IMG/VR virus record: IMGVR_UViG_2875722834_000004
Reading direction: 5' to 3' (one strand)
Source: a virus
Lineage: Duplodnaviria; Heunggongvirae; Uroviricota; Caudoviricetes
Length of the DNA stretch: 26,521 nt
Part shown: one piece after another, positions 1-21,790 of the stretch
How positions within the stretch are numbered: the first letter of the stretch is position 1
Layout: every line of letters begins with the position of its first letter
Program-made: the position numbers and the translations under genes
Notes under the pieces: generated by a model
Seen by the model: the letters and a program-made list of their open reading frames with translations, nothing else
Databases searched by the model: none
What the model was told of the DNA's origin: nothing

Positions 1-19
1 CTATTTGATAAATATTAAA

Positions 20-1315
20 TTAATTTTTCATTGCTTCGTTATGGGGCATGGTTGGGGCAAACTCGCTTAACTGTGTATTTAACAAAGCTACCTGTGCATT
101 ATTGTTTTCAGACATCCATTTTCCGTATACCTGAAATACCATTTGCGCATCTGCATGGCCCATCTGGTTTGCTATAAATGCCGGGTTAGCACCAGCTGTC
201 AGCGACCAGCAGGCATAAGTATGTCTCGACTGATATGATTTTCGATGGCGGAGTCCGGCACGTTTTATCGCTGCGTCCCACATCTGCCTTATTGAGTCAA
301 CGGTAAAATGGTCACCATAATTTTTTACTCTCGCTGACACTTCAGGTTGAAAAACAAAGGTGCATTTTTGTTTTTCTGTTCTGCCATACTCTCTGAGGTG
401 AACATCAATGATATGCTCTTTGCTCAGTCTCGTTAATGTCATCTGACTCCGGAGAGCGTCGATTGCTGGCTTAATAAGATGAATGACCCGATTGGTTCCC
501 GCCTGTGTTTTTGGTACCGTGAAACGGTCTTTTGCTAAATTTCTCCTGATCATCATTGTTCCATTTTTCAGATCTATGTCCTCCCATCCAAGTGCACACA
601 GCTCACCAGGGCGAACTCCAGTATAAACAGAAACACACCATAAATTTTTTGCTTGCTGATTTCTGCACGCATCGATAAGACGGATAAATTCTTCCCGCGA
701 AAGAGGATCCGGAATGGTTCTTGATTCCTTTAATGGCGAGATCCCCTTAAACGGATTATCTGCCAGGTAACCGTTATCAACACCAAACTGGAACACGGCG
801 TTAAGATTTGTCATGTAATTATTTACAGTTACAGCCGATCTCCCTGGTTGTGTAACAATATAGTTACTTTTGGGGATCTGGTATCCAGTCAGTAACTCTT
901 TACGAACCTCCAGTAATTTTTCTTTATTAATCGATGAGGCAAGATTTTTTTCACCGATTATGCTCAGGATATTTTTGATGACGGCACGGTATGTGTTGAG
1001 TGATGTTTTGGCGACTTCAGTTTCTTTCAGTGCCAGAAATTTTTCAGCCAGTTCTTTTATGGTTAAATCTTGTCGGGCCTCACCAAATTTTTCCAGATTG
1101 CGTGAGGAGGGAAACTGTTTTGCATAGTCGAAAACACCAGTTTTTATTGCGTAACAAACAGAGGAGCGTAGTTCACCTGCAACGCGCCTGTTTTTTGCTG
1201 TGTCAGGAACCCCCAGATTTTCCCTGACTCTTACGTCTTTATAAACAAACCAGATACGTAATTTCCCTCCATGGTTTTCCACGCCTGTCGGATATTTCAT
1301 TTCAACTTCTCTCAT
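20..1315 (-). CDS. Tyrosine site-specific integrase (P4-like phage integrase), apparently intact
   Basis: 431-aa ORF at the prophage left edge; C-terminal region has integrase-like R...HxxR...Y catalytic spacing (SRHTYACW ... GHADAQMVFQVYGKW); sits next to an excisionase-like gene. Position corresponds to intQ of the Qin prophage. Confidence 0.85.
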   Translation of the reverse strand: MREVEMKYPTGVENHGGKLRIWFVYKDVRVRENLGVPDTAKNRRVAGELRSSVCYAIKTGVFDYAKQFPSSRNLEKFGEARQDLTIKELAEKFLALKETEVAKTSLNTYRAVIKNILSIIGEKNLASSINKEKLLEVRKELLTGYQIPKSNYIVTQPGRSAVTVNNYMTNLNAVFQFGVDNGYLADNPFKGISPLKESRTIPDPLSREEFIRLIDACRNQQAKNLWCVSVYTGVRPGELCALGWEDIDLKNGTMMIRRNLAKDRFTVPKTQAGTNRVIHLIKPAIDALRSQMTLTRLSKEHIIDVHLREYGRTEKQKCTFVFQPEVSARVKNYGDHFTVDSIRQMWDAAIKRAGLRHRKSYQSRHTYACWSLTAGANPAFIANQMGHADAQMVFQVYGKWMSENNNAQVALLNTQLSEFAPTMPHNEAMKN

Positions 1316-1334
1316 TAGTTAGTGTGGCTTTTAG

Positions 1335-1586
1335 TCAAGTAAGATGACGTCTTGGTCTCGCTGATGCCTGGCGCTCAATCCAGCGATCAATTTCTTCCAG
1401 GTTGTAAAAGCATGGACTGTTATCCCATGGCATACCGTCATGAGCGACATGCTTATATTCCCTTCCTTCCATAAACGATTTTTCCCGGGCCTTTTTTAAC
1501 GTACCTTTTTTTATTCCTTTCAGCGCAATTAACTGCTCTTCGGATACCCATTTGCCGGGAGAGACAATCATGATTACTTCGCTCAT
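1335..1586 (-). CDS. Excisionase-like small DNA-binding protein (Xis family)
   Basis: 83-aa ORF immediately upstream of int on the same strand; contains a GREY motif as in lambda Xis (KDGREY). Start could instead be the internal Met 5 codons in. Confidence 0.6.
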   Translation of the reverse strand: MSEVIMIVSPGKWVSEEQLIALKGIKKGTLKKAREKSFMEGREYKHVAHDGMPWDNSPCFYNLEEIDRWIERQASARPRRHLT

Positions 1587-1658
1587 CGATTTCTTTATCT
1601 CTTACATCAGACGAGCGCCGGTTGCAGAATACCAGTCACAACCGGCGACAGTTGAACA

Positions 1659-4130
1659 TTAAGAATCAGCCTGACTCGGGATCAGTTTTTGCCAGATAAC
1701 TGAAACGTATTTTGCCTGGTAACGGGCGTCATCAAGTGCATTATGGCGCTCACCTTCGAATGGAATAGCCGTTCTGGCATCGAAGTCTATGGCTTTCCCC
1801 AGCTCAACGATTGTGCGTACATCGCGATCGTTGTAGTAACGCCACGGGCAGGGGATCCCCTGCCGTTCGTATGAACGGCGCAAAATCGTGTTGTCGAAGT
1901 TGGCTCCATTTCCCCAAACCTGAACAAAAAATTCACCGGAGTTTTCGTCGATAAATTCTCGCAATTGTAACAGTGCATCATCTAACGGGATTTCATCGGT
2001 CATAATGGCAGATTGCGCTTCGCGTGATTGCTTAAGCCACCATTTAATGGTGTCCCGATCAATGACTCCGCCAGCAGTTTCCAGATCGATAGTCTTACTA
2101 AATTCCGGTCCCATATCTCCGGTTTGCGGATCGAAAAATATTGCACCTATTGAGATGATCGGGGCATCAGGATTTTTTCCCATGGTTTCAAGGTCGATCA
2201 TTAGATGGTCACACGTCCTGCTGGTGGATGTGATTTCGTGATGACCGTTCACCTTAATTGGGTGATCTGCCGTCTCGCCAGTTTCATTATCGCTATTGTG
2301 ATGCTGATTGCCGCCAGTGATCTCCTTGTGTGGATGTTCAGCGCCTTCCATTTCCTCCGGATCATCTTCCTGAACTTCAACCTGATACTCTTCATCGAAT
2401 GTTTCTTGGTATGTTGCGTCGCCCATCACCGCGCCACAATCAGGGCAGTTGCCGCCGCCGGTCTGACCGCAGGCGGTGCAGACTTTTTCCACTTCCTGTT
2501 GCGCTACTGGTTCAGGCTGTTTCGTTTCTGGCTCGTTTTGTAACGCATTTGGACTGTTTTGTTCCGCTTTTTGGTAGTTCCGTTCCGATTCATGCTGGTT
2601 CTGGTTCACAGAATCGCGGGTCTGGAGCCCCTTAACCCATTTCGGATCATTCGGGTCACTAATCCCTTCAACAAATTCACCACGTGATGCAGCAAGCAAC
2701 TTATCGGCGTCAGGCTGGCTGATATTGGCTGCCTGCATAATTTTGTTTACTTCGTCAGCGGTAACTTTTATCGGCTCTGGTTGTTCTGAATCTTCAGCGG
2801 TATCTACATTTTGCGGTAAGCCCGTGTATGTGCCATTTTTTCGGGCAAAATATTCTTCTTTTGTGATTTCAGTGGCGCCAGCAGCCAGTGCCTTATCCAG
2901 ACCAGAGAGTTTGTTTGCGCGACCGTATTTTTCTCCGTCCTTATCTGCGAAGAGGAAATAGAACGGCCCCTCACGCTCTACAGATGGTTCAGCTTCCGGC
3001 GCGGTTTCATTTTTTGGGATATCAGATACCTCAGTTTCCACTGCATCAGTTTGTGTTTCTGATGACTGGAGAACATCAACAGTGCCCAGGTCTGTTTCTT
3101 CATTCTCAAACACGCCCTTTGTCGTCAGGTATTCGCAGATATATTTGTTCAGTGCTACGGGATCTTTGTGAATGTCGATCGGACGCTCACGGACAAGGCC
3201 AAAAATAGTTTGGCGGTCGTAGCGAAGGGCATCAGGCTGTTTGCGCATTGATGCCGAGATACGCTTCCAGTCTTCGCGGTCGTTGTCGATAACTTCTTTT
3301 TTTGCCCAGCGATGGATGCTGCCGTCAATGTTTCCGGCATCCACATCACTAGGCCAGAGAGCGTAGGCCAGTTCGTCATCCAGTGTTTTCCATGTCTGCT
3401 TGTATTCGCGATGAATGGCAGCAATGACCGGGCTGATTTTTCCTGTTGAATTTTCAGTGTACTGTTGATTGGCTCTGGCGCGGGCGAGATCAACAACAGA
3501 CGTGTATTTTCCGGTTTCCTTGCGTTCACCTTCGCGACGTTTTTTCCAGATGCGCATCTCTGCCTGAATTTCGGGCCATTTAGCACCAGGAATACATTTA
3601 TGCTTAACCCACCCAATGGCGTGCAACTTAAGCTCCGGATACATGGCGTTAACTTCTGGCATTTTCATCAACGCTTCAACGATATGTCCGTCGAATGTTG
3701 CCATGTCTTCCTGCAACAATTCCTGTGCGCTAATAACCATATCAACGGTGATGTTTTCACATGTGTCGAACTTAACCATGACAGCGTTCTGTACTTCAGG
3801 GGCCAGCTTGTCAAAAGTGACGTTCATCGGATCGGATTCAGTCTCAACCGGGACAAAAGAAGCAGACTCCTCATCCCAGCGGTTTTCCTGCATATATTCA
3901 GCATCCCATGAATCGAGGGCAGGGCGGGGTATGCCAGGTTTATCCTCGCAGACAATAAATTTATAAGCGCAGTCCTGAGCAGCCGGATAATGTTCCAGGA
4001 ATTGCCAGTGAAATTTTGCTCGAGCACGGCGTTCGTCGCCAGCTTCAATGGCTGTGGCTACAGCCACAGCGCCTTCTTCCCTTGTTGCCAGTTCGTCAGG
4101 AATAGCGGCGCAAATAAAGACTTTACTCAT
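1659..4130 (-). CDS. Large early-left protein with C-terminal DEDDh (DnaQ-like) 3'-5' exonuclease domain; full-length counterpart of the ydfE position in Qin
   Basis: ORF open to 4166; likely start at MSKVF (4130). C-terminal ~180 aa carry Exo I/II/III-like motifs (MIDLETMG; WGNGANFDNTIL; HNALDDARYQAKY). A CxxC...CPDC zinc-ribbon-like motif and acidic low-complexity stretches lie upstream. Located between ydfD and xis/int. Confidence 0.75.
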   Translation of the reverse strand: MSKVFICAAIPDELATREEGAVAVATAIEAGDERRARAKFHWQFLEHYPAAQDCAYKFIVCEDKPGIPRPALDSWDAEYMQENRWDEESASFVPVETESDPMNVTFDKLAPEVQNAVMVKFDTCENITVDMVISAQELLQEDMATFDGHIVEALMKMPEVNAMYPELKLHAIGWVKHKCIPGAKWPEIQAEMRIWKKRREGERKETGKYTSVVDLARARANQQYTENSTGKISPVIAAIHREYKQTWKTLDDELAYALWPSDVDAGNIDGSIHRWAKKEVIDNDREDWKRISASMRKQPDALRYDRQTIFGLVRERPIDIHKDPVALNKYICEYLTTKGVFENEETDLGTVDVLQSSETQTDAVETEVSDIPKNETAPEAEPSVEREGPFYFLFADKDGEKYGRANKLSGLDKALAAGATEITKEEYFARKNGTYTGLPQNVDTAEDSEQPEPIKVTADEVNKIMQAANISQPDADKLLAASRGEFVEGISDPNDPKWVKGLQTRDSVNQNQHESERNYQKAEQNSPNALQNEPETKQPEPVAQQEVEKVCTACGQTGGGNCPDCGAVMGDATYQETFDEEYQVEVQEDDPEEMEGAEHPHKEITGGNQHHNSDNETGETADHPIKVNGHHEITSTSRTCDHLMIDLETMGKNPDAPIISIGAIFFDPQTGDMGPEFSKTIDLETAGGVIDRDTIKWWLKQSREAQSAIMTDEIPLDDALLQLREFIDENSGEFFVQVWGNGANFDNTILRRSYERQGIPCPWRYYNDRDVRTIVELGKAIDFDARTAIPFEGERHNALDDARYQAKYVSVIWQKLIPSQADS

Positions 4131-4222
4131 TTGTTTTAACCTCATGACAGATTTAAGGATGAACAAATCCCTGCCATTGCTGGCATATAAGAATGAAACC
4201 GGATATTTATTACGGAACTGTT

Positions 4223-4414
4223 TTAAAGACCTGCCGGGATTTCGATATTATCCTGGTGAATAACTTTATCGACCGGGTAACAGTTACCGGGAATTTTCTG
4301 TTCGGTTGCTGCAGTCATACACTCCTGCATTGTCCTGTGAACACTGACTGCAATATCAACTGGCTCTCCGGAAACAAGAAAAACTGTCAGAACAAGCACA
4401 AATGCTGAATTCAT
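4223..4414 (-). CDS. ydfD: YdfD-like small lysis-associated protein (63 aa, N-terminal hydrophobic segment)
   Basis: Recalled match to K-12 YdfD starting MNSAFVLVLTVFLVSGEPVD; start overlaps the dicB stop (ATGA-type overlap). The six-frame ORF extends upstream to 4468 but that part overlaps dicB. Confidence 0.75.
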   Translation of the reverse strand: MNSAFVLVLTVFLVSGEPVDIAVSVHRTMQECMTAATEQKIPGNCYPVDKVIHQDNIEIPAGL

Positions 4415-4599
4415 TGTGCACATCCTTTTGGCATCAGACGTAAACGAGCCAGCATTGAAACAATGCATATTTTATTTAATAGCTCCCGTTCTTGTTTTCT
4501 CTTGTTAATGGCATCTTCAGTAAATACTGGGTTACTGATAGTGACACCAATTTCAAAACAACCTTCAGACGTATTAACGTTTGGTAATAACGTTTTCAT
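4411..4599 (-). CDS. dicB: Cell-division inhibitor DicB (62 aa)
   Basis: Protein MKTLLPNVNTSEGCFEIGVTISNPVFTEDAINKRKQERELLNKICIVSMLARLRLMPKGCAQ matches my recollection of E. coli DicB; followed by ydfD as in Qin. Confidence 0.85.
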   Translation of the reverse strand: MKTLLPNVNTSEGCFEIGVTISNPVFTEDAINKRKQERELLNKICIVSMLARLRLMPKGCAQ

Positions 4600-4694
4600 T
4601 ATCGCGTCCTCAACAATGAATTTTGTGATGCAGTGCCTGGTGCCTCCAGGTGACGTTAACCAGTTAACAATTAACGCCGGATAGCAGGGAGGAT

Positions 4695-5036
4695 TTGGCG
4701 TGTGCGCAGTGGATCTGGGGGCGGATCGTGGGTCTCTACGAACAGGCAGCCAGTGATGATGGCGAGATCATGCGACCAAAAGAGCCTAACTGGACTGCCT
4801 GGGCCAATGACGTGCGCACAATGCGGATGCTGGATGGCAGAAGCCACAGACAAATTTGCGAAATGTTTGGTCGGGTTCAGCGAGATCCATTCTGGGTAAA
4901 AAACATCATGAGCCCGTCAAAGCTCCGCGAAAAATGGGACGAACTGGTCATCCGCCTGGGACGTTCACCTGTACAGCGTTGTGTTAATCATATTTCTGAA
5001 CCGGATACAGAAATTCCGCCTGGTTTCAGAGGATAA
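4695..5036 (+). CDS. Hypothetical protein, possibly an N-terminally truncated remnant
   Basis: 113-codon open frame, but the only start near the AGGGAGG Shine-Dalgarno (4686-4692) is a TTG 2 nt away; in-frame GTG at 4728 and ATG at 4770 are alternatives. No family recognised. Confidence 0.35.
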   Translation: MACAQWIWGRIVGLYEQAASDDGEIMRPKEPNWTAWANDVRTMRMLDGRSHRQICEMFGRVQRDPFWVKNIMSPSKLREKWDELVIRLGRSPVQRCVNHISEPDTEIPPGFRG

Positions 5037-5076
5037 GTGTTGATTTCAGGTCATGAGGTAATTTTAAGGGGGACTT

Positions 5077-5499
5077 GTGGCAAAAGTTTTTACACAAGAG
5101 GAGCGGGAAAAAATTAAATGGCAGGTGGTGGAACTCGTGCGCCAGAGCGGCCGTGAGACGTTACGGCAACTGGAAGCTAAAACAGGTGCGACTAGATATC
5201 TGATGAGCGTTCTTGCCAGAGAGCTGGTAGCCAGTGGCGATGTATACAACTCCGGCTACGGGTTATTCCCCTCTGAACAGGCGCGTAAGGACTGGCAAAA
5301 CGCCCGCAAAAAACTCTCGAGGGCAAAGGTGAAGAAACCTGCTGTGGTTGATCCGGACCTTATCTGGTCATCACCTGACGGAGAAATACGTCGCTACGAC
5401 AGTCGCCTAAACATAATCTGTCGCGAGTGCCGGAAGAGCGAAGTTATGCAGCGCATACTGGCTTTCTATCAGGGTAATTTTCAGGACGTGGCGCAGTGA
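5077..5499 (+). CDS. Hypothetical protein (140 aa)
   Basis: GTG start preceded by a strong SD (AAGGGGGA, 5066-5072); stop overlaps the start of the next gene (GTGAGTG). Protein is basic with a central helix-rich region; no family recognised. Confidence 0.6.
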   Translation: MAKVFTQEEREKIKWQVVELVRQSGRETLRQLEAKTGATRYLMSVLARELVASGDVYNSGYGLFPSEQARKDWQNARKKLSRAKVKKPAVVDPDLIWSSPDGEIRRYDSRLNIICRECRKSEVMQRILAFYQGNFQDVAQ

Positions 5500-5942
5500 G
5501 TGCACCGGCAACCATTCTTGATATGTGCTGTGGCAGCCGCATGTTCTGGTTCGATAAGTCTGACGAACGGGCGATATTCAGCGATATCAGAAAAGAAGGA
5601 TACACATTACGCAATGGGAGACGCTTGATTATCAGCCCTGACATTATCGCAGATTTTCGTGCATTATCATTTGCAGACGCATCTTTTTCGATGGTTGTAT
5701 TAGACCCTCCGCATCTTGAGAGTGTTGGTGATAACGCCTGGATGGGAAAGAAATATGGACGGCTGAATAAAGATGCCTGGCGTGATGATTCGCGACAGAG
5801 ATTTAAAGAAGCCTTTCGGGTGTTGAGGCCGCACGGCGTTCTGATTTTTTAATGGAATGAAACGCAAATACCGGTAAGCCAGATTCTGGCACTGACAGAC
5901 AGAAAACCTGTTATCTGTCAACGAACAGGGAAAAAACGATAA
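5496..5942 (+). pseudogene. Phage Dam-like N6-adenine DNA methyltransferase interrupted by an in-frame TAA at 5850-5852
   Basis: 118-aa ORF contains a DPPH motif (variant of the DPPY/F motif IV of N6-adenine methyltransferases). The same frame stays open for 30 more codons after the TAA (…HGVLIF*WNETQIPVSQILALTDRKPVICQRTGKKR*). A single substitution (AAA to TAA) would explain the stop. Confidence 0.55.
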
Positions 5943-6114
5943 AACCCACTGGATTATTTTTATGAAAGAGGCATCCAGTGAGTAGATTCGTAAGGCTACA
6001 GATACGTATATCTGAATAATTAAATTCAGTTCTGTAAATAAAATTTAATCCTTAACCGGATGGATTTCTGCACCCTCAGAACATCAGGAGGCCGCCCGAA
6101 AGGGCGGTAGTGAA

Positions 6115-6225
6115 ATGCGAAAGTTCAAAATTATTATTGAAACGGGAATAGCTGGTGGAGATTTTGAGGATGTATTCGAAGTGGACGATGACGCAACACC
6201 TGAGGAAATTCATGACGGAGCATAA
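6115..6225 (+). CDS. Short acidic ORF (36 codons), possibly the 5' part of a decayed gene
   Basis: ATG at 6115; ends at TAA 6223-6225; frame reopens for 23 more codons to TGA 6295-6297. Preceded by a CCGCCC-GAAA-GGGCGG hairpin (6092-6107). Confidence 0.2.
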   Translation: MRKFKIIIETGIAGGDFEDVFEVDDDATPEEIHDGA

Positions 6226-6274
6226 GAAATTTTCTTTAACTACTGCAATTACTCATACCACGAAATAAAAGACG

Positions 6275-6466
6275 ATGAGGAAGAACAAAGTGGCTGATTT
6301 TTGTTCAGCTAAATATAACATCAGTTTTGAAGAGCGGGATGAACTATTAATGGACTATGGTGAGTTACGCGGTGGAAGTGCTGCTGATGTCGAATCCTAG
6401 CGTGATGACTATGAAGCGGGAAAAACTCCGGTCGAAGCATATTGTGATGAGTGGGGCGATGAATGA
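6275..6466 (+). pseudogene. Short ORF with internal in-frame TAG (6398-6400); possible decayed phage gene
   Basis: ATG 6275; 41 codons, TAG, then 21 codons ending …YCDEWGDE with the stop overlapping the next ATG (ATGA). Confidence 0.25.
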
Positions 6467-6750
6467 GCGAGATTAATTATCAGGAAGGGCATGAAACGGC
6501 GGGGCAAGCAAAACCAGTGGCATGGCGATATCGCTACGTGAAAAAAGGCGTTACGGACTTTCAGGGGAAGTAGTGGTCTGGTGACTGGAAATATGTACCG
6601 AAAAAAGAGGATTGTAACGACAGGCCGAACTATCAAATTCAGGCCTTATTCACTGCCTCACCAGTCCCAGTTACATCAGAAGAACTGGTTAAAGCTGTGC
6701 ACTTTTATGAACAACTAAAACGCGAAAATCCACCAACATCCGGCAACTAG
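6463..6750 (+). pseudogene. ORF with internal in-frame TAG (6571-6573); possible decayed phage gene (~95 codons)
   Basis: MSEINYQEGHETAGQAKPVAWRYRYVKKGVTDFQGK*WSGDWKYVPKKEDCNDRPNYQIQALFTASPVPVTSEELVKAVHFYEQLKRENPPTSGN*; 59 codons stay open after the TAG, which is unlikely by chance. Confidence 0.3.
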
Positions 6751-7004
6751 ATTAATGGATTAACTATGTCGGTTAAACGACCAGCCAACTGAAAAAGCGG
6801 AAACCTGATTACAGGTTGCCAGATAAGGCAATGAGCTACCTGGCGCGGAACGGACTGATAAGTATGGGGAATGTTTTACGATGAACCTTTAGACTAAAGA
6901 GTTTGTAACGCTATGTAAGTGATTTTTTCTGGTTTAGATATTTATATGTCCGGCCAAATTGAGGTGTGTTTAAATGTAATTGCACATTGATTGTAGGAGG
7001 AATA

Positions 7005-7184
7005 ATGAAAAACGCATTGCAGTTTTTGTTTGTTGCGTTCTGGTTGTTCGCATCATGTATGCCCATCATCTTCACAGCAAGGTATATGGAAAAAGTTGAT
7101 GTTTTGATATTAATATTTGGATATATAAATGCCCTTTTTTTAGGGGTGTTCATGGCGGTCATGTGCATTGAATACTGGCGGTAA
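7005..7184 (+). CDS. Small hydrophobic protein (59 aa, two predicted transmembrane segments)
   Basis: ATG 7 nt downstream of a consensus AGGAGG (6995-7000); protein MKNALQFLFVAFWLFASCMPIIFTARYMEKVDVLILIFGYINALFLGVFMAVMCIEYWR; lies in an AT-rich islet. Confidence 0.5.
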   Translation: MKNALQFLFVAFWLFASCMPIIFTARYMEKVDVLILIFGYINALFLGVFMAVMCIEYWR

Positions 7185-7439
7185 ATACAGCGAACTCCAT
7201 TGGTTTAGTTGGATATTTACTGTGCTGGACAAAAACGGTTTGCGGGGAAATCTTAGTTAAGTAGAATGACTGCGGGTGCTTGAGGCTATCTGCCTCGGGC
7301 ATGGACACCAACGGCAGATAGAGAAAAGCCCCAGTTAACATTACGCGTCCTGCAAGACGCTTAACATTAATCTGAGGCCAATTTCATGCTAGACACATGT
7401 AGGTTAGCCTCTTACGTGCCGAAAGGCACGGAGAAGCAG

Positions 7440-8900
7440 GCTATTGTTAACACCAAGCTGTAATGTCCCCTTTGAACCATTCTAAAATGTCCCCAGACAA
7501 TTCTCTGGGGGATTTTTCATGATCAAAGAGACTGTTACGATGAGTCATAAGGAACTCCACCGACTTCAGATTATTCAGGAACAAGCTGCGGCACGCATTG
7601 GCATTTCTATTCGGCAGGTTAAACGTCTGGTGCAACGGTATAGAAATGAAGGGCCTTCTGGTCTGGTTTCCCACCGACGTGGAAAGCGTCCTAATAATTC
7701 CTTTTCTACTGAATTCAGAGCAACAGTAATTTCACTCCTCAAAGGCCGTTACGCTGATTTTGGACCTACGTTTGCGTGCGAAAAATTGCGCGAGATACAC
7801 GGTTTATCTTTATCCGTTGAAACTCTCAGAAAGTGGATGATAGAAGAGGGGTTATGGCGTGAACGCCGTCGTAAAATTGCCCGTATATATCAACGCCGCA
7901 TGCGACGACCATCTTACGGTGAACTGATCCAGATTGATGGCTCACCTCATGACTGGTTTGAAAATCGAGGCCCCAGATGTACACTGATCGTTTTCATTGA
8001 TGATGCCACCAGTGCGTTGATGGCGTTGCGTTTTGTGCCTGCTGAAACAACCCGGGCTTACATGGAAACCCTCCGGGGTTACCTTAATGATCATGGCGTA
8101 CCGCTCGCTCTCTACTCTGATAGACACAGTATATTCAGGGTAAATAACCCAGAGCGGGAAGGTGAGCTGACCCAGTTCACTCGTGCGATAAAGACACTGG
8201 GCATCGAGCCAATCCATGCCAACAGCCCGCAGGCAAAAGGGCGGGTAGAGCGCGCCAATCAGACACTACAGGACAGGCTGGTCAAAGAAATGCGGCTTCA
8301 GAATATCAGTGATATTGAAACAGCAAATGCATGGTTGCCGACCTTTATTGAAGCCTATAACAACCGGTTCGCTACGTCGCCTCGTACTACTGATAATGCT
8401 CATCTTGATGTGCACCATTCTGAAGAGGAACTGGGTTATATCTTCAGCCTACAGGCGAAGCGCGTTCTGTCTAAAAATCTCACTTTCCAGTACAAAAGCA
8501 GTGCGTTTCAGGTACGCAGTGAGGGCCGGGGATATCGACTTAGGCATTCGGTTGTTACTGTATGCGAGAACTTTGACGGTGAAATTAACGTTCTGTATGA
8601 CGGGAAAGCGCTGGGCTGGGAAAAGTATGTTGATGGCCCGGAGCCTATACCACTGGATGATGAAAAGAGTGTCCATGAACGAGTGGATAATGCCCGTATT
8701 GATTTACGCTCAAAATACTATGTTAAACCTAAAGCTGACCATCCCTGGCTTACGCGCCGAACGCAAAGTCATCAGCAAGTTAAGCCCCCGAAGTTACCTA
8801 AAAAGAAGCCTGATCCCGATAAAAAAGATTGAAACCAAGATCGATTCGGTTGAGTGCATATCCATTCATAGGGTAGATTCTTAAGTCGCGTTTCTGGTGT
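7440..8900 (+). mobile_element. Putative insertion sequence carrying the 437-aa transposase (ends not defined)
   Basis: Single transposase ORF replacing the segment where Qin carries dicA/dicC/ydfABC; a hairpin (CCCCAGA...TCTGGGG, 7489-7507) sequesters the GGGGGA SD-like sequence before the ATG. I could not identify terminal inverted repeats or a target duplication by eye. Confidence 0.3.
7519..8832 (+). CDS. DDE transposase/integrase (rve core), IS481/ISNCY-like, 437 aa
   Basis: N-terminal HTH-like region, then DDE triad candidates (IQIDGSPHDW, YSDRHS, SPQAKGRVERANQTLQ). Confidence 0.8.
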   Translation: MIKETVTMSHKELHRLQIIQEQAAARIGISIRQVKRLVQRYRNEGPSGLVSHRRGKRPNNSFSTEFRATVISLLKGRYADFGPTFACEKLREIHGLSLSVETLRKWMIEEGLWRERRRKIARIYQRRMRRPSYGELIQIDGSPHDWFENRGPRCTLIVFIDDATSALMALRFVPAETTRAYMETLRGYLNDHGVPLALYSDRHSIFRVNNPEREGELTQFTRAIKTLGIEPIHANSPQAKGRVERANQTLQDRLVKEMRLQNISDIETANAWLPTFIEAYNNRFATSPRTTDNAHLDVHHSEEELGYIFSLQAKRVLSKNLTFQYKSSAFQVRSEGRGYRLRHSVVTVCENFDGEINVLYDGKALGWEKYVDGPEPIPLDDEKSVHERVDNARIDLRSKYYVKPKADHPWLTRRTQSHQQVKPPKLPKKKPDPDKKD

Positions 8901-13058: not shown

Positions 13059-13358
13059 AAAAATTCCTTAATACTGATAACTTGGCGCACTATACACACG
13101 TTCCTGAAGAAAGCTATAGTTTTTTGATGGGGTTGAAGATGGCTGGATGTCTAAAATAAACATTGCTTCATATGTTCAACTATGCGTTAATGATTGCGTC
13201 GGTTTGAAGAACAGACGATATACGAAGTAGTTTACTAAAGCAGTTCTCATTTCAGGTGTTATTCACTTATTCCTTCTTTGAGTCTCTCCAATTAAGTACG
13301 AAGTCGTTTCTGTTATGCAAACCATTTATGCCGAAAGGCTCAAGTTAAGGAATGTAGA

Positions 13359-13574
13359 ATGTCAAATAAAATGACTGGTTTAGTAAAATGGTTTAACGCT
13401 GATAAAGGTTTCGGCTTTATTTCTCCTGTTGATGGTAGTAAAGATGTGTTTGTGCATTTTTCTGCGATTCAGAATGATAATTATCGAACCTTATTTGAAG
13501 GTCAAAAGGTTACCTTCTCTATAGAGAGTGGTGCTAAAGGTCCTGCAGCAGCAAATGTCATCATTACTGATTAA
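13359..13574 (+). CDS. cspB: Cold-shock protein CspB-like (71 aa)
   Basis: [38 protein letters not shown]... with RNP1/RNP2 motifs; AGGAAT SD; long upstream leader. Confidence 0.85.
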
Positions 13575-13855
13575 AATTCATCGCTCGTCTGTATACGATA
13601 ACGAAGAAGGCTGATGCCTGAGTAGAGATACGGACAGAGTAGTGAATATTGGATCTCTTTAATAAAAAGTAAGGAGGTCCAATACATGAAACAATGGCTA
13701 GCATATTTGGCAAAATCTTAATCAGGAAAAGTATGCTAACCATTGTGGTGAAGTGCAGGTTTGCTGCATGAATAGTTTTACAGCAGAAGCTAACTGCTGG
13801 CATGGCAAAACAAAGTGCGTAAGTGGATGACTCCCACAAAAAGCACCACAATCTC

Positions 13856-14859: not shown

Positions 14860-15048
14860 ACACAAAAATCAGATACGGCCTGTCGGCTGCCGTTCTGGCG
14901 CTGATTGGTGCTGGCGCATCTGCTCCTCAGATACTTGACCAGTTTCTGGACGAAAAAGAAGGTAACCACACAATGGCATACCGCGATGGTTCTGTGAACC
15001 GCCCCGGGAATCCTGGAGACTAAACTTCCTGAGAAAGAGGTAAACAGG

Positions 15049-15375
15049 ATGACTAAAAATACTCGTTTTTCCCCCGAAGTCCGTCAACGGGCAGTCCGTA
15101 TGGTTCTGGAAAGTCAGAGCGAATATGACTCACAATGGGCGACAATTTGTTCCATTGCTCCAAAGATTGGCTGTACGCCGGAGACTCTGCGTGTCTGGGT
15201 TCGCCAGCATGAGCGGGATACCGGGGGCGGTGATGGAGGGCTCACCACCGCTGAACGTCAGCGTCTGAAAGAGCTGGAACGTGAAAATCGTGAACTGCGC
15301 CGCAGTAACGATATCCTTCGCCAGGCTTCCGCTTATTTTGCGAAGGCGGAGTTCGACCGCCTCTGGAAAAAATGA
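15049..15375 (+). CDS. IS629 OrfA (transposase N-terminal/HTH protein), 108 aa
   Basis: [23 protein letters not shown]...; leucine-zipper-like C-terminus; overlaps orfB in the -1 frame. Confidence 0.9.
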
Positions 15376-16262
15376 TGCCACTGCTGGATAAGCTGCGTGA
15401 GCAGTACGGGGTCGGACCGCTATGCAGCGAACTGCATATTGCCCCGTCAACGTATTACCACTGTCAGCAACAGCGACATCATCCGGATAAACGCAGTGCC
15501 CGTGCGCAGCGCGATGACTGGCTGAAGAAAGAGATACAGCGCGTATACGATGAAAATCACAAGGTATACGGTGTGCGTAAAGTCTGGCGTCAGTTGTTAC
15601 GGGAAGGTATCAGAGTGGCCAGATGCACTGTGGCACGTCTCATGGCGGTTATGGGACTTGCCGGTGTTCTCCGGGGTAAAAAGGTCCGTACGACCATCAG
15701 CCGGAAAGCCGTTGCCGCAGGCGACCGCGTAAACCGTCAGTTCGTGGCAGAACGACCTGACCAGCTGTGGGTGGCTGATTTTACTTACGTCAGCACATGG
15801 CGGGGCTTCGTCTATGTGGCGTTCATCATTGATGTGTTTGCCGGATACATCGTGGGGTGGCGGGTCTCATCGTCCATGGAAACGACATTCGTGCTGGATG
15901 CACTGGAGCAGGCGTTATGGGCCCGTCGACCGTCCGGCACGGTCCATCACAGTGATAAAGGTTCTCAGTATGTATCGCTGGCCTACACACAGCGGCTTAA
16001 GGAAGCCGGATTACTGGCATCAACAGGAAGTACAGGCGACTCGTATGACAACGCGATGGCGGAGAGCATCAATGGTCTTTACAAAGCGGAGGTAATACAC
16101 CGTAAGAGCTGGAAAAACCGTGCAGAAGTGGAACTGGCCACACTCACGTGGGTGGACTGGTATAACAATCGACGATTGCTGGAAAGGCTGGGCCATACTC
16201 CTCCGGCAGAAGCAGAAAAAGCTTATTATGCTTCCATCGGAAACGATGATCTGGCAGCCTGA
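15372..16262 (+). CDS. IS629 OrfB (DDE transposase catalytic domain), 296 aa
   Basis: rve-type DDE domain (WVADFTYV...[10 protein letters not shown]...[13 protein letters not shown]); -1 frame relative to orfA, consistent with IS3-family OrfAB frameshifting. Confidence 0.9.
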
Positions 16263-16662
16263 GTTCACAGATAAAACACTCTCCAGGAAACCCGGGGCGG
16301 TTCACTGGCATATGGACCATCTGTCGGGGTGCCACAGTGGTGGATGGAAAAACCGTTTTTCCCAATATGAAACTGTCGAAGGAAAAATGCGACCAGGTCA
16401 ACGCCATTGAGCGTGATAAGGCGCTGGCATGGGTGGAGCGCAATATTAAAGTACCACTGACCGAACCACAAAAAGCGGGTATCGCGTCATTTTGTCCCTA
16501 TAACATTGGCCCCGGTAAGTGTTTCCCGTCGACGTTTTATAAGCGGCTGAATGCTGGTGATCGTAAAGGTGCATGCGAAGCGATTCGCTGGTGGATTAAG
16601 GATGGCGGACGCGATTGCCGCATTCGTTCAAATAACTGTTACGGTCAGGTTATTCGTCGTGA

Positions 16663-17196
<534 letters not shown>

Positions 17197-17558
17197 GGTA
17201 ATATTAAATCGGAACATTTACATCGCGGAATGTAAAATTTAAATAAAAAGGACTCTTCCATGAGCCAAAATTCCTGAAATCTTAAGGGTAAGATAAAAGG
17301 TCTTAATCAGAATGACACGTTTTATTAATAAATAAAGCTATTCTTTCATTGCTGTGTTTTTCTTTACAAAAGTAATCCTTGCTATGGGTGGTTAATCATG
17401 CGTTAATGGTGTTCTGGTTTGTTACAAATTTATCTGAAGCAGTCATTGTTATAATTTTATTATTTGTACCTCTTGAGATTTCCTTGTTGGTTTTTCTCTC
17501 TGATATTTTTTTTCGGACCATTCTGCCCAAGGGCTAATTTCTTCAAAAGGTAATAATT

Positions 17559-17771
17559 ATGTCTAACAAAATGACTGGTTTAGTGAAATGGTTTAACCCT
17601 GAAAAAGGTTTTGGTTTCATCACGCCGAAAGATGGCAGCAAAGATGTGTTTGTCCATTTCTCAGCAATTCAGAGCAACGATTTCAAAACATTAACTGAGA
17701 ATCAGGAAGTTGAATTTGGTATTGAGAACGGACCTAAAGGTCCTGCCGCTGTTCATGTAGTGGCGCTTTGA
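17559..17771 (+). CDS. cspI: Cold-shock protein CspI-like (70 aa)
   Basis: [70 protein letters not shown]. Confidence 0.9.
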
Positions 17772-17781
17772 GGTAGACAAT

Positions 17782-17970
17782 ATTACAAACCATATTCACT
17801 TTAGATGCCCGTGTTGTCATGGTTCCCAGTATAGAACATCATCTTTTGATGTTTCTGACATGAATCCTTTCGGGGCAAAATGTATCTTTTGTAAATCAAT
17901 GATGATTACATTTGATAATATTTCACAATACTTAAATGCCAGCCGTCTGTCGTTGGATTTAAAAAAGTGA
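17782..17970 (+). CDS. ynfN: YnfN-like zinc-ribbon ORF (CPCCHG...CIFCK) with no canonical start codon in frame
   Basis: Open frame ...HFRCPCCHGSQYRTSSFDVSDMNPFGAKCIFCKSMMITFDNISQYLNASRLSLDLKK*; the only in-frame ATG (17860) lies after the first CxxC pair. Possible ATT start at 17782 seven nt after a GAGGT; followed by a terminator. Gene-symbol assignment is by position and motif only. Confidence 0.3.
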   Translation: MTNHIHFRCPCCHGSQYRTSSFDVSDMNPFGAKCIFCKSMMITFDNISQYLNASRLSLDLKK

Positions 17971-19859: not shown

Positions 19860-20108
19860 ATGGAAGTCAACAAAAAGCAGCTGGCTGACATTTTCGGTGC
19901 GAGTATCCGTACCATTCAGAACTGGCAGGAACAGGGAATGCCCGTTCTGCGAGGCGGTGGCAAGGGTAATGAGGTGCTTTATGACTCTGCCGCCGTTATA
20001 AGATGGTATGCCGAAAGGGATGCTGAAATTGAGAACGAAAAGCTGCGCCGGGAAGTTGAAGAACTGCGGCAGGCCAGCGAGACAGATCTCCAGCCATCCG
20101 TGAGGTGA
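19860..20108 (+). pseudogene. Terminase small subunit Nu1, truncated after ~80 codons (NohQ/NohA-like remnant)
   Basis: First 80 aa near-identical to lambda Nu1 (MEVNKKQLADIFGASIRTIQNWQEQGMPVLRGGGKGNEVLYDSAAV...RQASE); the frame then reads PSVR and stops at a deletion junction with gene A sequence. Confidence 0.85.
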
Positions 20109-21790
20109 ATGTGGTGAAGTCTGCCCGTGTCGGTTATTCCAAAATGCTGCTGGGTGTTTATGCCTACTTTATAGAGCATAAGCAGCGCAACACACTTATC
20201 TGGTTGCCGACGGATGGTGATGCCGAGAACTTTATGAAAACCCACGTTGAGCCGACCATCCGCGATATTCCGTCGCTGCTGGCGCTGGCTCCGTGGTATG
20301 GCAAAAAGCACCGGGATAACACGCTCACTATGAAGCGTTTTTCCAATGGTCGTGGCTTCTGGTGCCTGGGCGGTAAAGCGGCAAAAAACTACCGTGAAAA
20401 GTCGGTGGATGTGGCGGGTTATGATGAACTTGCTGCCTTTGATGAGGATATTGAACAGGAAGGCTCTCCGACGTTCCTTGGCGACAAACGTATTGAAGGC
20501 TCGGTCTGGCCAAAGTCCATCCGTGGCTCCACGCCCAAAGTGAGAGGCACCTGCCAGATTGAGCGTGCAGCCAGTGAATCCCCGCATTTTATGCGTTTTC
20601 ATGTTGCCTGCCCGCACTGCGGGGAGGAGCAGTATCTTAAATTTGGCGACAAAGAGACGCCGTTTGGCCTCAAATGGACGCCGGATGACCCCTCCAGCGT
20701 GTTTTATCTCTGCGAGCATAATGCCTGCGTCATCCGCCAGCAGGAGCTGGACTTCACTGATGCCCGTTATATCTGCGAAAAGACCGGGATCTGGACCCGT
20801 GATGGCATTCTCTGGTTTTCGTCATCCGGTGAAGAGATTGAGCCGCCGGACAGCGTGACCTTTCACATCTGGACGGCGTACAGCCCGTTCACCACCTGGG
20901 TGCAGATTGTCAAAGACTGGATGAAAACGAAAGGGGATACGGGAAAACGTAAAACCTTCGTAAACACCACGCTCGGTGAGACGTGGGAGGCGAAAATTGG
21001 CGAACGTCCGGATGCTGAAGTGATGGCAGAGCGGAAAGAGCATTATTCAGCGCCCGTTCCTGACCGTGTGGCTTACCTGACCGCCGGTATCGACTCCCAG
21101 CTGGACCGCTACGAAATGTGTGTATGGGGATGGGGGCCGGGTGAGGAAAGCTGGCTGATTGACCGGCAGATTATTATGGGTCGCCACGACGATGAACAGA
21201 CGCTGCTGCGTGTGGATGAGGCCATCAATAAAACCTATACCCGCCGGAATGGTGCAGAAATGTCGGTATCCCGTATCTGCTGGGATACTGGCGGGATTGA
21301 CCCGACCATTGTGTATGAACGCTCGAAAAAACATGGGCTGTTCCGGGTGATCCCCATTAAAGGGGCATCCGTCTACGGAAAGCCGGTGGCCAGCATGCCA
21401 CGTAAGCGAAACAAAAACGGGGTTTACCTTACCGAAATCGGTACGGATATCAATATCAAACCGGGCCATGATTATTACTTTTATATCCGCAGTGTGAACA
21501 CCGTTGGCAAATCGGCATTCGTGGAGGCTGTCGGTCAGGCGAGCGATGATGCGGAAGGTTACCTGGATTTTTTCAAAGGCCAGATAACCGAATCCCATCT
21601 CGGCAAGGAGCTGCTGGAAAAAGTCGAGCTGACGGAGGATAACGCCAGCAGACTGGAGGAGTTTTCGAAAGAGTGGCAGGACGCTAACGATAAGTGGAAT
21701 GCCATGTGGGGCGTCAAAATTGAGCAGACCAAAGACGGCAAACATTATGTCGCGGGTATCCAACAGCGTATGGAAATATCATTCACCTGA
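20105..21790 (+). pseudogene. Chimeric remnant: terminase large subunit A (internal ~448 aa, lacking the N-terminus) fused in frame to a C-proximal segment of tail protein J
   Basis: Residues from [14 protein letters not shown]... to ...VYLTEIGTD match lambda gpA; from about 21449 the ORF reads [22 protein letters not shown]...[24 protein letters not shown], matching lambda J, then ends. Confidence 0.8.

Follow-up and report, generated by a model that had tools for sequence, protein, structure and literature searches.

We characterised a 26,521-nucleotide stretch of tailed-phage DNA (Caudoviricetes; IMG/VR record IMGVR_UViG_2875722834_000004), hereafter the window, and in particular a long minus-strand gene at positions 1659-4130, the intact form of ydfE from the Qin prophage of Escherichia coli. 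Judged from its sequence, the 823-amino-acid (aa) product has the scaffold of the RecE family, but its nuclease has been exchanged and its N-terminal module is another one. We favour, at somewhat better than even confidence, the reading that it is a Mg2+-dependent 3'-5' DNA exonuclease on this RecE-type scaffold, which would work on DNA ends in early lytic growth, with no annealase dedicated to it. The gene is a common and already annotated prophage gene, neither novel nor rare. The main interest lies in the family rather than in the locus: one and the same scaffold, kept by purifying selection, is found with nucleases of either polarity or with an annealase.

The coding sequence encodes 823 aa plus a stop and is uninterrupted, in agreement with an earlier note on this DNA that had described a single open reading frame (ORF) of about this length. 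The maximal ORF spans 1659-4166 on the minus strand and gives 835 aa when counted from its first TTG; the 823-aa form begins with the ATG at 4130, the start chosen by RefSeq, and a GAGG lies 9 nt ahead of this codon. The window protein was 100% identical to the RefSeq 'exonuclease' WP_102596040.1 (strain HH107), and the 823-aa protein matched PHROG 2082 ('exonuclease') from end to end. Given its 2.5-kb length and its domain scores, the ORF is not a chance feature. Relative to the copy in phage mEp460, the ratio of nonsynonymous to synonymous substitution rates (dN/dS) was 0.27 for the protein as a whole; the folded domains gave 0.06-0.15 and the linkers 0.33-0.49. Purifying selection acts on the whole protein, beyond the nuclease.

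The C-terminal DEDDh 3'-5' exonuclease domain occupies aa 642-813 (1692-2207, minus strand; dN/dS 0.15). This segment matched PF16473 (Rv2179c-like 3'-5' exoribonuclease) at E=2.4e-67 and 226.5 bits, against a gathering cut-off of 27, and the match spanned model positions 2-177 of 177; RNase_T gave only a weak Pfam match in the same C-terminal region. The DEDDh motif, checked as DxE, D and H-x4-D, was present. In a search of PDB sequences (E<=1), the sole structures retrieved were those of T4 DexA (8KEL and 8KEN; 8KEL at E=1.6e-6), and the pairwise alignment with DexA gave 32% identity over the domain. Residues D646, E648, D746, H796 and D801 aligned with DexA D7, E9, D119, H190 and D195, so that all five catalytic positions are kept. 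A Pfam scan found no PD-(D/E)XK domain in the 823-aa protein, and the DEDDh fold that the earlier note had placed at the C-terminus, in preference to PD-(D/E)XK, is therefore confirmed by the domain search.

DexA and this domain share the PF16473 fold family and the five catalytic residues. However, DexA and its E. coli homologue EcD are stand-alone proteins of ~180-230 aa, whereas here the domain makes up the C-terminal fifth of an 823-aa chain and the DexA-specific loops are missing. The founder of PF16473, Rv2179c of Mycobacterium tuberculosis, belongs to the same Pfam family, whose whole model is covered by our match; Rv2179c itself, a small bacterial protein that stands alone, is termed an exoribonuclease in the family description. 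It is related less closely than DexA, since it was not retrieved in the PDB sequence search at E<=1.

We found that much of the remaining protein is homologous to the non-catalytic region of RecE. The NCBIfam RecE equivalog NF007259 was matched by aa 246-623 over positions 271-600 of 877 (E=1.5e-82). The score of 278 bits lies far under the curated cut-off of 1269 because both ends of the model are unmatched. BLASTP against RecE of the E. coli Rac prophage aligned aa 262-627 with RecE 278-592. Within this region, a helical 'mid' domain (aa 245-345; 3096-3398, minus strand), which falls within the NF007259 match, aligned to RecE 278-351 and is kept in nearly all scaffold relatives. A second segment, aa 474-622 (2265-2711, minus strand), which includes the DADKLLAASRGEFVEGISDPNDPKWVKG block, shared 68% identity with RecE 454-588, some blocks exceeding 90%, and at the DNA level the recE gene of some E. 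coli genomes was 85-91% identical to it. The homology ends ~25 residues ahead of the PD-(D/E)XK domain of RecE (PF12684, RecE 615-850).

The earlier note had pointed to a Cys-rich zinc-ribbon-like motif upstream of the nuclease, and a CxxC-x7-CxxC motif is indeed present at aa 551-565 (2436-2480, minus strand; CTACGQTGGGNCPDC). Since it lies inside the 68%-identical segment, it is a feature of RecE too, and its counterpart in E. coli RecE reads CNACGQTGGDNCPDC. The motif was limited to the E. coli DEDDh family and E. coli RecE, and was missing from the other scaffold representatives examined; it is a lineage-specific feature and was probably exchanged by recombination.

The recE gene and the 823-aa gene stand in the same slot, each being the last large gene of the early-left region ahead of xis and int, and both proteins have the same size and layout of N-terminal region, acidic linker and C-terminal nuclease. 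The nucleases themselves differ: that of RecE is a 5'-3' PD-(D/E)XK enzyme (PF12684), missing here, whereas the 823-aa protein has the 3'-5' DEDDh domain. The N-termini also differ, as RecE starts with PF06630 (residues 2-178), also missing here, and the first ~240 aa of our protein are of the YdfE_N/YdfE_C type. PF06630 was present in other DEDDh-ended relatives (L006, P0132). The recE gene is followed by recT (L003), whereas the 823-aa gene is followed by xis without recT. The statement that this architecture is not that of RecE thus holds for the nuclease and the first ~240 aa but not for aa ~245-622, which are homologous to the RecE non-catalytic region.

Two candidate identities were rejected. 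A RecE orthologue is ruled out by the NF007259 score and by the lack of PF12684, PF06630 and an adjacent recT. A relative of lambda Exo or YqaJ is likewise ruled out, with no match in Pfam, NCBIfam, PHROGs or PDB. Lambda Exo and YqaJ hold the equivalent position in the lambdoid early-left operon but differ in fold family and polarity, and the earlier view that the protein does not have the lambda Exo architecture agrees with the lack of sequence similarity in any search.

The N-terminal region was modelled with AlphaFold2 from a diverse alignment of 15 sequences. Three confident domains were obtained (aa 1-95, 100-206 and 245-340), with a mean predicted local distance difference test (pLDDT) score of 85. 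The first is an alpha/beta domain of the Pfam YdfE_N type (aa 1-95; 3846-4130, minus strand) and the second a helical domain of the YdfE_C type (aa 100-206; 3513-3833, minus strand; pLDDT >90; dN/dS 0.10), followed by the mid domain at pLDDT ~90. The assignments to YdfE_N (PF27430) and YdfE_C (PF27432) are precomputed Pfam hits on proteins 97-100% identical over aa 1-350 (P0001, P0121 and P0002). The region from aa 346 to 640 is strongly acidic and, over aa ~346-640, probably disordered. It includes an acidic linker at aa 346-470 (2721-3095, minus strand; net charge -14; dN/dS 0.33), which holds a conserved GPFY...RANK motif at aa 388 that was found in 14 long scaffold representatives. The earlier description of a long acidic N-terminal region is accordingly incomplete: the acidic part is aa ~346-640, and aa 1-340 hold the three folded domains.

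We then sorted the scaffold representatives with a length of 500 aa or more according to N- and C-terminal module. Word-index homologue searches, whether started from the single sequence or from a profile, were swamped by hundreds of partial E. coli fragments, and diversity was taken from a library of 1.84 billion representative proteins, in which aa 1-350 had only 171 relatives at E<=0.001. The YdfE-type N-terminus was joined to DEDDh in 4 representatives, to PD-(D/E)XK in 3, to a 'P0174-type' module in 20 and to a 'P0211-type' module in 5. The RecE-type N-terminus (PF06630) was joined to PD-(D/E)XK in 7 representatives, to DEDDh in 6 and to the 'P0174-type' module in 1. Structure comparison showed the 'P0174-type' module to be Rad52-like; PDB sequence and profile searches and a relaxed Pfam scan returned nothing for it. 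These Rad52-annealase siblings (PHROG 2489/7838, e.g. P0129 and P0174) share YdfE_N/YdfE_C, the mid domain and the linker motifs with our protein and hold the same slot ahead of the integrase. The fourth C-terminal module on the scaffold (PHROG 26058, ~200 aa; P0211, P0124, P0236, P0256 and P0222) had no Pfam match and is probably helical. Four short E. coli variants of 209-527 aa (P0001, P0087, P0103 and P0121) had YdfE N-terminal pieces fused straight to DEDDh, as if the linker had been lost by internal deletion.

This distribution of modules provides the main argument on function. The scaffold is repeatedly joined to DNA-end and recombination activities, and the DEDDh version is therefore placed in DNA rather than RNA metabolism, with DNA-end processing or recombination as the favoured role, where the earlier note had proposed a possible recombination or anti-defence function. 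In support, the only solved relative retrieved by sequence is T4 DexA, a 3'-5' DNA exonuclease (PMC12153337). The reading is also backed by the purifying selection on every folded part, by the shared gene order, free of RecT, in viable phages, and by the Mu-Gam-like end-protection gene that follows a Rad52 variant. On these grounds we infer a DNA substrate as opposed to RNA, the polarity of the enzyme and its role at DNA ends or in recombination. The gene is the last large gene of a Qin/mEp460-type early-left operon, dicB-ydfD-exo-xis-int, in the slot taken by exo/bet in lambda and by recE/recT in Rac. In the phage it would be expressed from the early-left promoter after induction, and the DNA ends on which its product would work could be those of phage or host. 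The DEDDh domain would trim DNA 3' ends by the two-metal mechanism usual for DEDDh enzymes, in which D646, E648, D746 and D801 are predicted to hold Mg2+ and H796 to serve as the general base. The scaffold, in turn, may bring the nuclease to a site or partner that is also used by the RecE N-terminal region.

Several observations weigh against this interpretation. PF16473 is named after an exoribonuclease, and the substrate may therefore be RNA. 'Recombination' may also be the wrong label, because a 3'-5' exonuclease leaves 5' overhangs, the wrong polarity for RecET/Red annealing, and no annealase gene is adjacent. The AlphaFold2 model covers the N-terminal region, and the linker and the DEDDh domain lie outside it. 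The N-terminal domains matched no solved structure and no viral predicted structure, which makes the targeting idea conjectural, and our literature searches returned no paper on the function of a protein with this architecture.

The RNA reading in its explicit form holds that the protein is a 3'-5' exoribonuclease that trims or degrades host or phage RNA, for example by processing the long dicB-operon transcript. It would be in keeping with the description of Rv2179c in the PF16473 family and with the weak RNase_T match. However, the PDB sequence search returned only the DNA exonuclease DexA, the scaffold is elsewhere fused to DNA nucleases and a DNA annealase, and the gene occupies a recombination-gene slot. 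We regard this explanation as very unlikely.

The similarity to DexA raises the further question of whether the protein is an HREX-type nuclease that defends the lysogen by superinfection exclusion. Like EcD, it would degrade the 5-hydroxymethylcytosine (5hmC) DNA of incoming T-even phages and spare host DNA. The C-terminal domain is homologous to T4 DexA, and EcD was reported to protect against T4, with K-12 lacking DexA homologues (PMC12153337). The truncated ydfE of K-12 fits this reported lack of homologues. In addition, the Escherichia 'bacterial DexA homologues' are probably mostly this prophage gene, the DEDDh part of which alone was found in 4,223 of 5,426 complete E. coli genomes. EcD is nonetheless a different protein: according to its cloning primers it starts MIDTET, at the position of the internal M644 of our protein. 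The 20-mer of the EcD primer matched one unrelated IMG/VR contig, and a distant blastn search gave a stand-alone homologue other than EcD.

The residues used for 5hmC recognition may also argue against an HREX-type role. The HREX group of 5hmC-recognising exonucleases comprises EcD and the dimer state of DexA, and DexA recognises 5hmC through the aromatic W152 and the acidic D169 (PMC12153337). W152, which is needed for 5hmC DNA, corresponds to Y766 in the 823-aa protein, whereas a stand-alone E. coli version keeps the tryptophan. The equivalent of D169 falls in an ambiguously aligned or missing stretch that was gapped out by MAFFT, in which D782 or D784 could be equivalent. DexA D90, which forms the tetramer, aligns with D718 and is kept, in contrast to EcD, which has A78; DexA S87 aligns with P715. 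Furthermore, the gene stands in an early lytic operon that is repressed in the lysogen rather than in a moron-like position, and in the window it has no promoter region. From this examination, an HREX-type function appears improbable. A caveat follows for the 2025 HREX report, in that most Escherichia 'DexA homologues' are probably C-terminal domains of a large early prophage protein, not stand-alone defence genes.

A 190-aa stand-alone version of the DEDDh domain (WP_001061348.1) was encountered at positions 2991-3563 of a locus (L011) from the 205-kb plasmid pEND_Eco 18005. It adjoins a PrtN-like gene in a lambdoid ea-type region of the plasmid, and it keeps the tryptophan equivalent to DexA W152 that is a tyrosine in the 823-aa protein.

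The genomic context of the gene was next compared across related phages. In HannyBb, mEp460 and vB_EcoS-640R1 the order was dicB-ydfD-exonuclease-xis-int, with no annealase gene, and xis directly followed the exonuclease gene in these three loci and in the window; recE followed by recT was seen at one locus (L003). The vB_EcoS-640R1 protein combines a PF06630 N-terminus with a DEDDh end. The divergent copy of a Stx2a phage (L008) was frameshifted and cut by an insertion sequence (IS) and had no usable context. One Rad52-type gene in the pre-integrase slot was followed by a Sipho_Gp157 or 'Mu Gam-like end protection' gene.

These contexts bear on a possible counter-defence or end-protection role, by which the protein would hide phage ends from RecBCD by trimming 3' tails or by turning ends into 5' overhangs, or would destroy DNA or RNA products of defence or 3'-OH signalling nucleotides. 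The early-left operon is where lambda keeps gam and other host-modulating genes, and a Pfam search of the HannyBb early region found no Gam or annealase family. The pairing of the Rad52-type sibling with a Mu-Gam-like gene shows that end protection belongs to the slot. However, the case is built from position and absences; PADLOC gave only a generic CRISPR-associated DEDDh match, and no known anti-defence family was matched. We therefore consider such a role doubtful.

A broader proposal concerns the scaffold itself. Full-length RecE improves linear-linear recombination, although its N-terminal region has no known function (2023 review, PMC11611040), and the function of these N-terminal two-thirds has been obscure for decades even though full-length RecE serves direct cloning. 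We tentatively suggest, as a speculation that is a little less doubtful than the defence-related roles weighed above but still unlikely, that the N-terminal ~600 residues of RecE and the YdfE-type N-terminus are interchangeable 'delivery platforms' of lambdoid phages carrying at least four modules: a 5'-3' PD-(D/E)XK exonuclease, a 3'-5' DEDDh exonuclease, a Rad52-type annealase and one further module. The DEDDh version would run an undescribed RecT-independent end-processing pathway, and the linker motifs (DADKLLAASRGEFVEGISDPNDPKWVKG and GPFY...RANK) would dock a host partner. If true, this pathway could make RecBCD-evading 5' overhangs or feed host recombination. The DEDDh version was the commonest in E. 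coli and had no RecT partner in all cases examined.

The gene is not unusual: most E. coli genomes carry it, and it has been annotated. Its DNA was found in 4,800 of the 5,426 complete genomes, with a match covering at least 80% of the gene in 3,489, and the whole int-xis-exo-ydfD-dicB block occurred in 2,257. Genomes carried a median of two copies and a maximum of ten. The viable phages PhiR42_1, HannyBb and Tritos have copies 99-100% identical at the protein level, and the mEp460 copy is 89% identical; the phage copies are named "exonuclease" or "3'-5' exonuclease". The assignment to Qin stands: in E. coli HH107 the cryptic Qin prophage, located between ydfJ and rspB, matches the window at 99.97-100% identity. 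In HB101, which is K-12-type, identity extends over the initial 803 nt of the query; the gene is recorded there as a partial coding sequence of 768 nt and is then interrupted by IS2, downstream of which lies an integrase gene without its N-terminus. This agrees with the prior description of K-12 ydfE as truncated beside an IS and a disrupted integrase, the window holding the intact form.

The genes flanking the exonuclease gene in the window are uninterrupted. An excisionase gene of 83 aa (xis; 1335-1586, minus strand; PF06806, E=1.6e-31; RefSeq 'excisionase family protein') is followed by a tyrosine integrase gene (int; 20-1315, minus strand; Arm-DNA-bind_2 and Phage_integrase; RefSeq 'site-specific integrase'), an ORF of 431 aa that RefSeq starts at 1300 to give 426 aa. 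Directly upstream, in the same operon, is ydfD (DUF1482; 4223-4414, minus strand), and then the gene of the cell-division inhibitor dicB (4411-4599, minus strand; PF05358, E=1.9e-40; NF049927). None of the exonuclease, xis and int genes is flagged as a pseudogene in the HH107 RefSeq record, and the int/xis pair is thus intact, as had been claimed. Such a pair does not imply an active prophage, because the promoter region has been lost and the prophage is decayed.

This loss is recorded by a deletion junction at 4682-4690. Window positions 1-4690 correspond to 13130-8441 of the HannyBb locus (L002), after which the match jumps to L002 position 5310. Compared with HannyBb, ~3.1 kb is missing upstream of dicB, comprising the repressor, cro-like and cII-like genes, the early-left promoter region and the ydfABC-type genes. 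Compared with a K-12-type locus (L005), positions 1317-3478 are missing, which hold dicC-dicA-ydfABC-dicF. In window 4690-8648, opposite-strand DUF977 and methyltransferase genes now abut dicB, and no Rfam match to the DicF RNA was found in the window. With the immunity and early-left promoter region deleted and DicF undetected, the dicB-ydfD-exo-xis-int operon looks promoter-less here and probably lacks its native promoter in this copy. Since the prophage is otherwise decayed as well, the gene is probably silent cargo in the window. An att-site search gave only an unconvincing 11-bp repeat between the prophage ends in the locus L001.

The gene may be an inert remnant in this genome, spared so far by mutation in a decaying prophage, and we give this an even chance. 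The deletion upstream of dicB, the IS3-family insertion in the lysozyme gene, the fused or truncated terminase and tail genes and the ISNCY element are all consistent with it, and about one quarter of the gene-carrying E. coli genomes hold only partial copies. However, the ORF is 99.6-99.9% identical in protein sequence to copies in viable phages, and the family is under purifying selection. Moreover, inertness would concern expression in this strain rather than the activity of the protein, and it is compatible with a DNA-end exonuclease on a RecE-type scaffold.

Further features were recorded elsewhere in the window. The IS3-family element lies at 14995-16304 inside the lysozyme gene rrrQ, contains HTH_Tnp_1 and rve ORFs and is not in HH107; it carries an ALIL frameshift pseudoknot at 15330-15446, and in HH107 the sequences on its two sides share an overlap of 3 bp, which fits a target duplication. 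The ISNCY-type element is represented by a 437-aa transposase ORF (7519-8832; HTH and rve_3), which RefSeq marks as incomplete in HH107 and which adjoins a sok antitoxin RNA at 7274-7445 (Rfam RF01794, 104 bits). At 20105-21790, a single ORF fuses the ATPase and nuclease domains of terminase gpA to tail-tip J domains, the trace left by a large deletion in which the head and tail genes were lost. Two cspA-type thermoregulator leaders (Rfam RF01766) were found at 13198-13590 and 17413-17798, belonging to the Qin cold-shock paralogues of the cspB and cspI region. Lastly, the nin region of HannyBb (L002 3544-4230) encodes a homologue of the epoxyqueuosine reductase QueH (E=1.9e-65), and its counterpart in the window appears as frameshifted pseudogenes in HH107.

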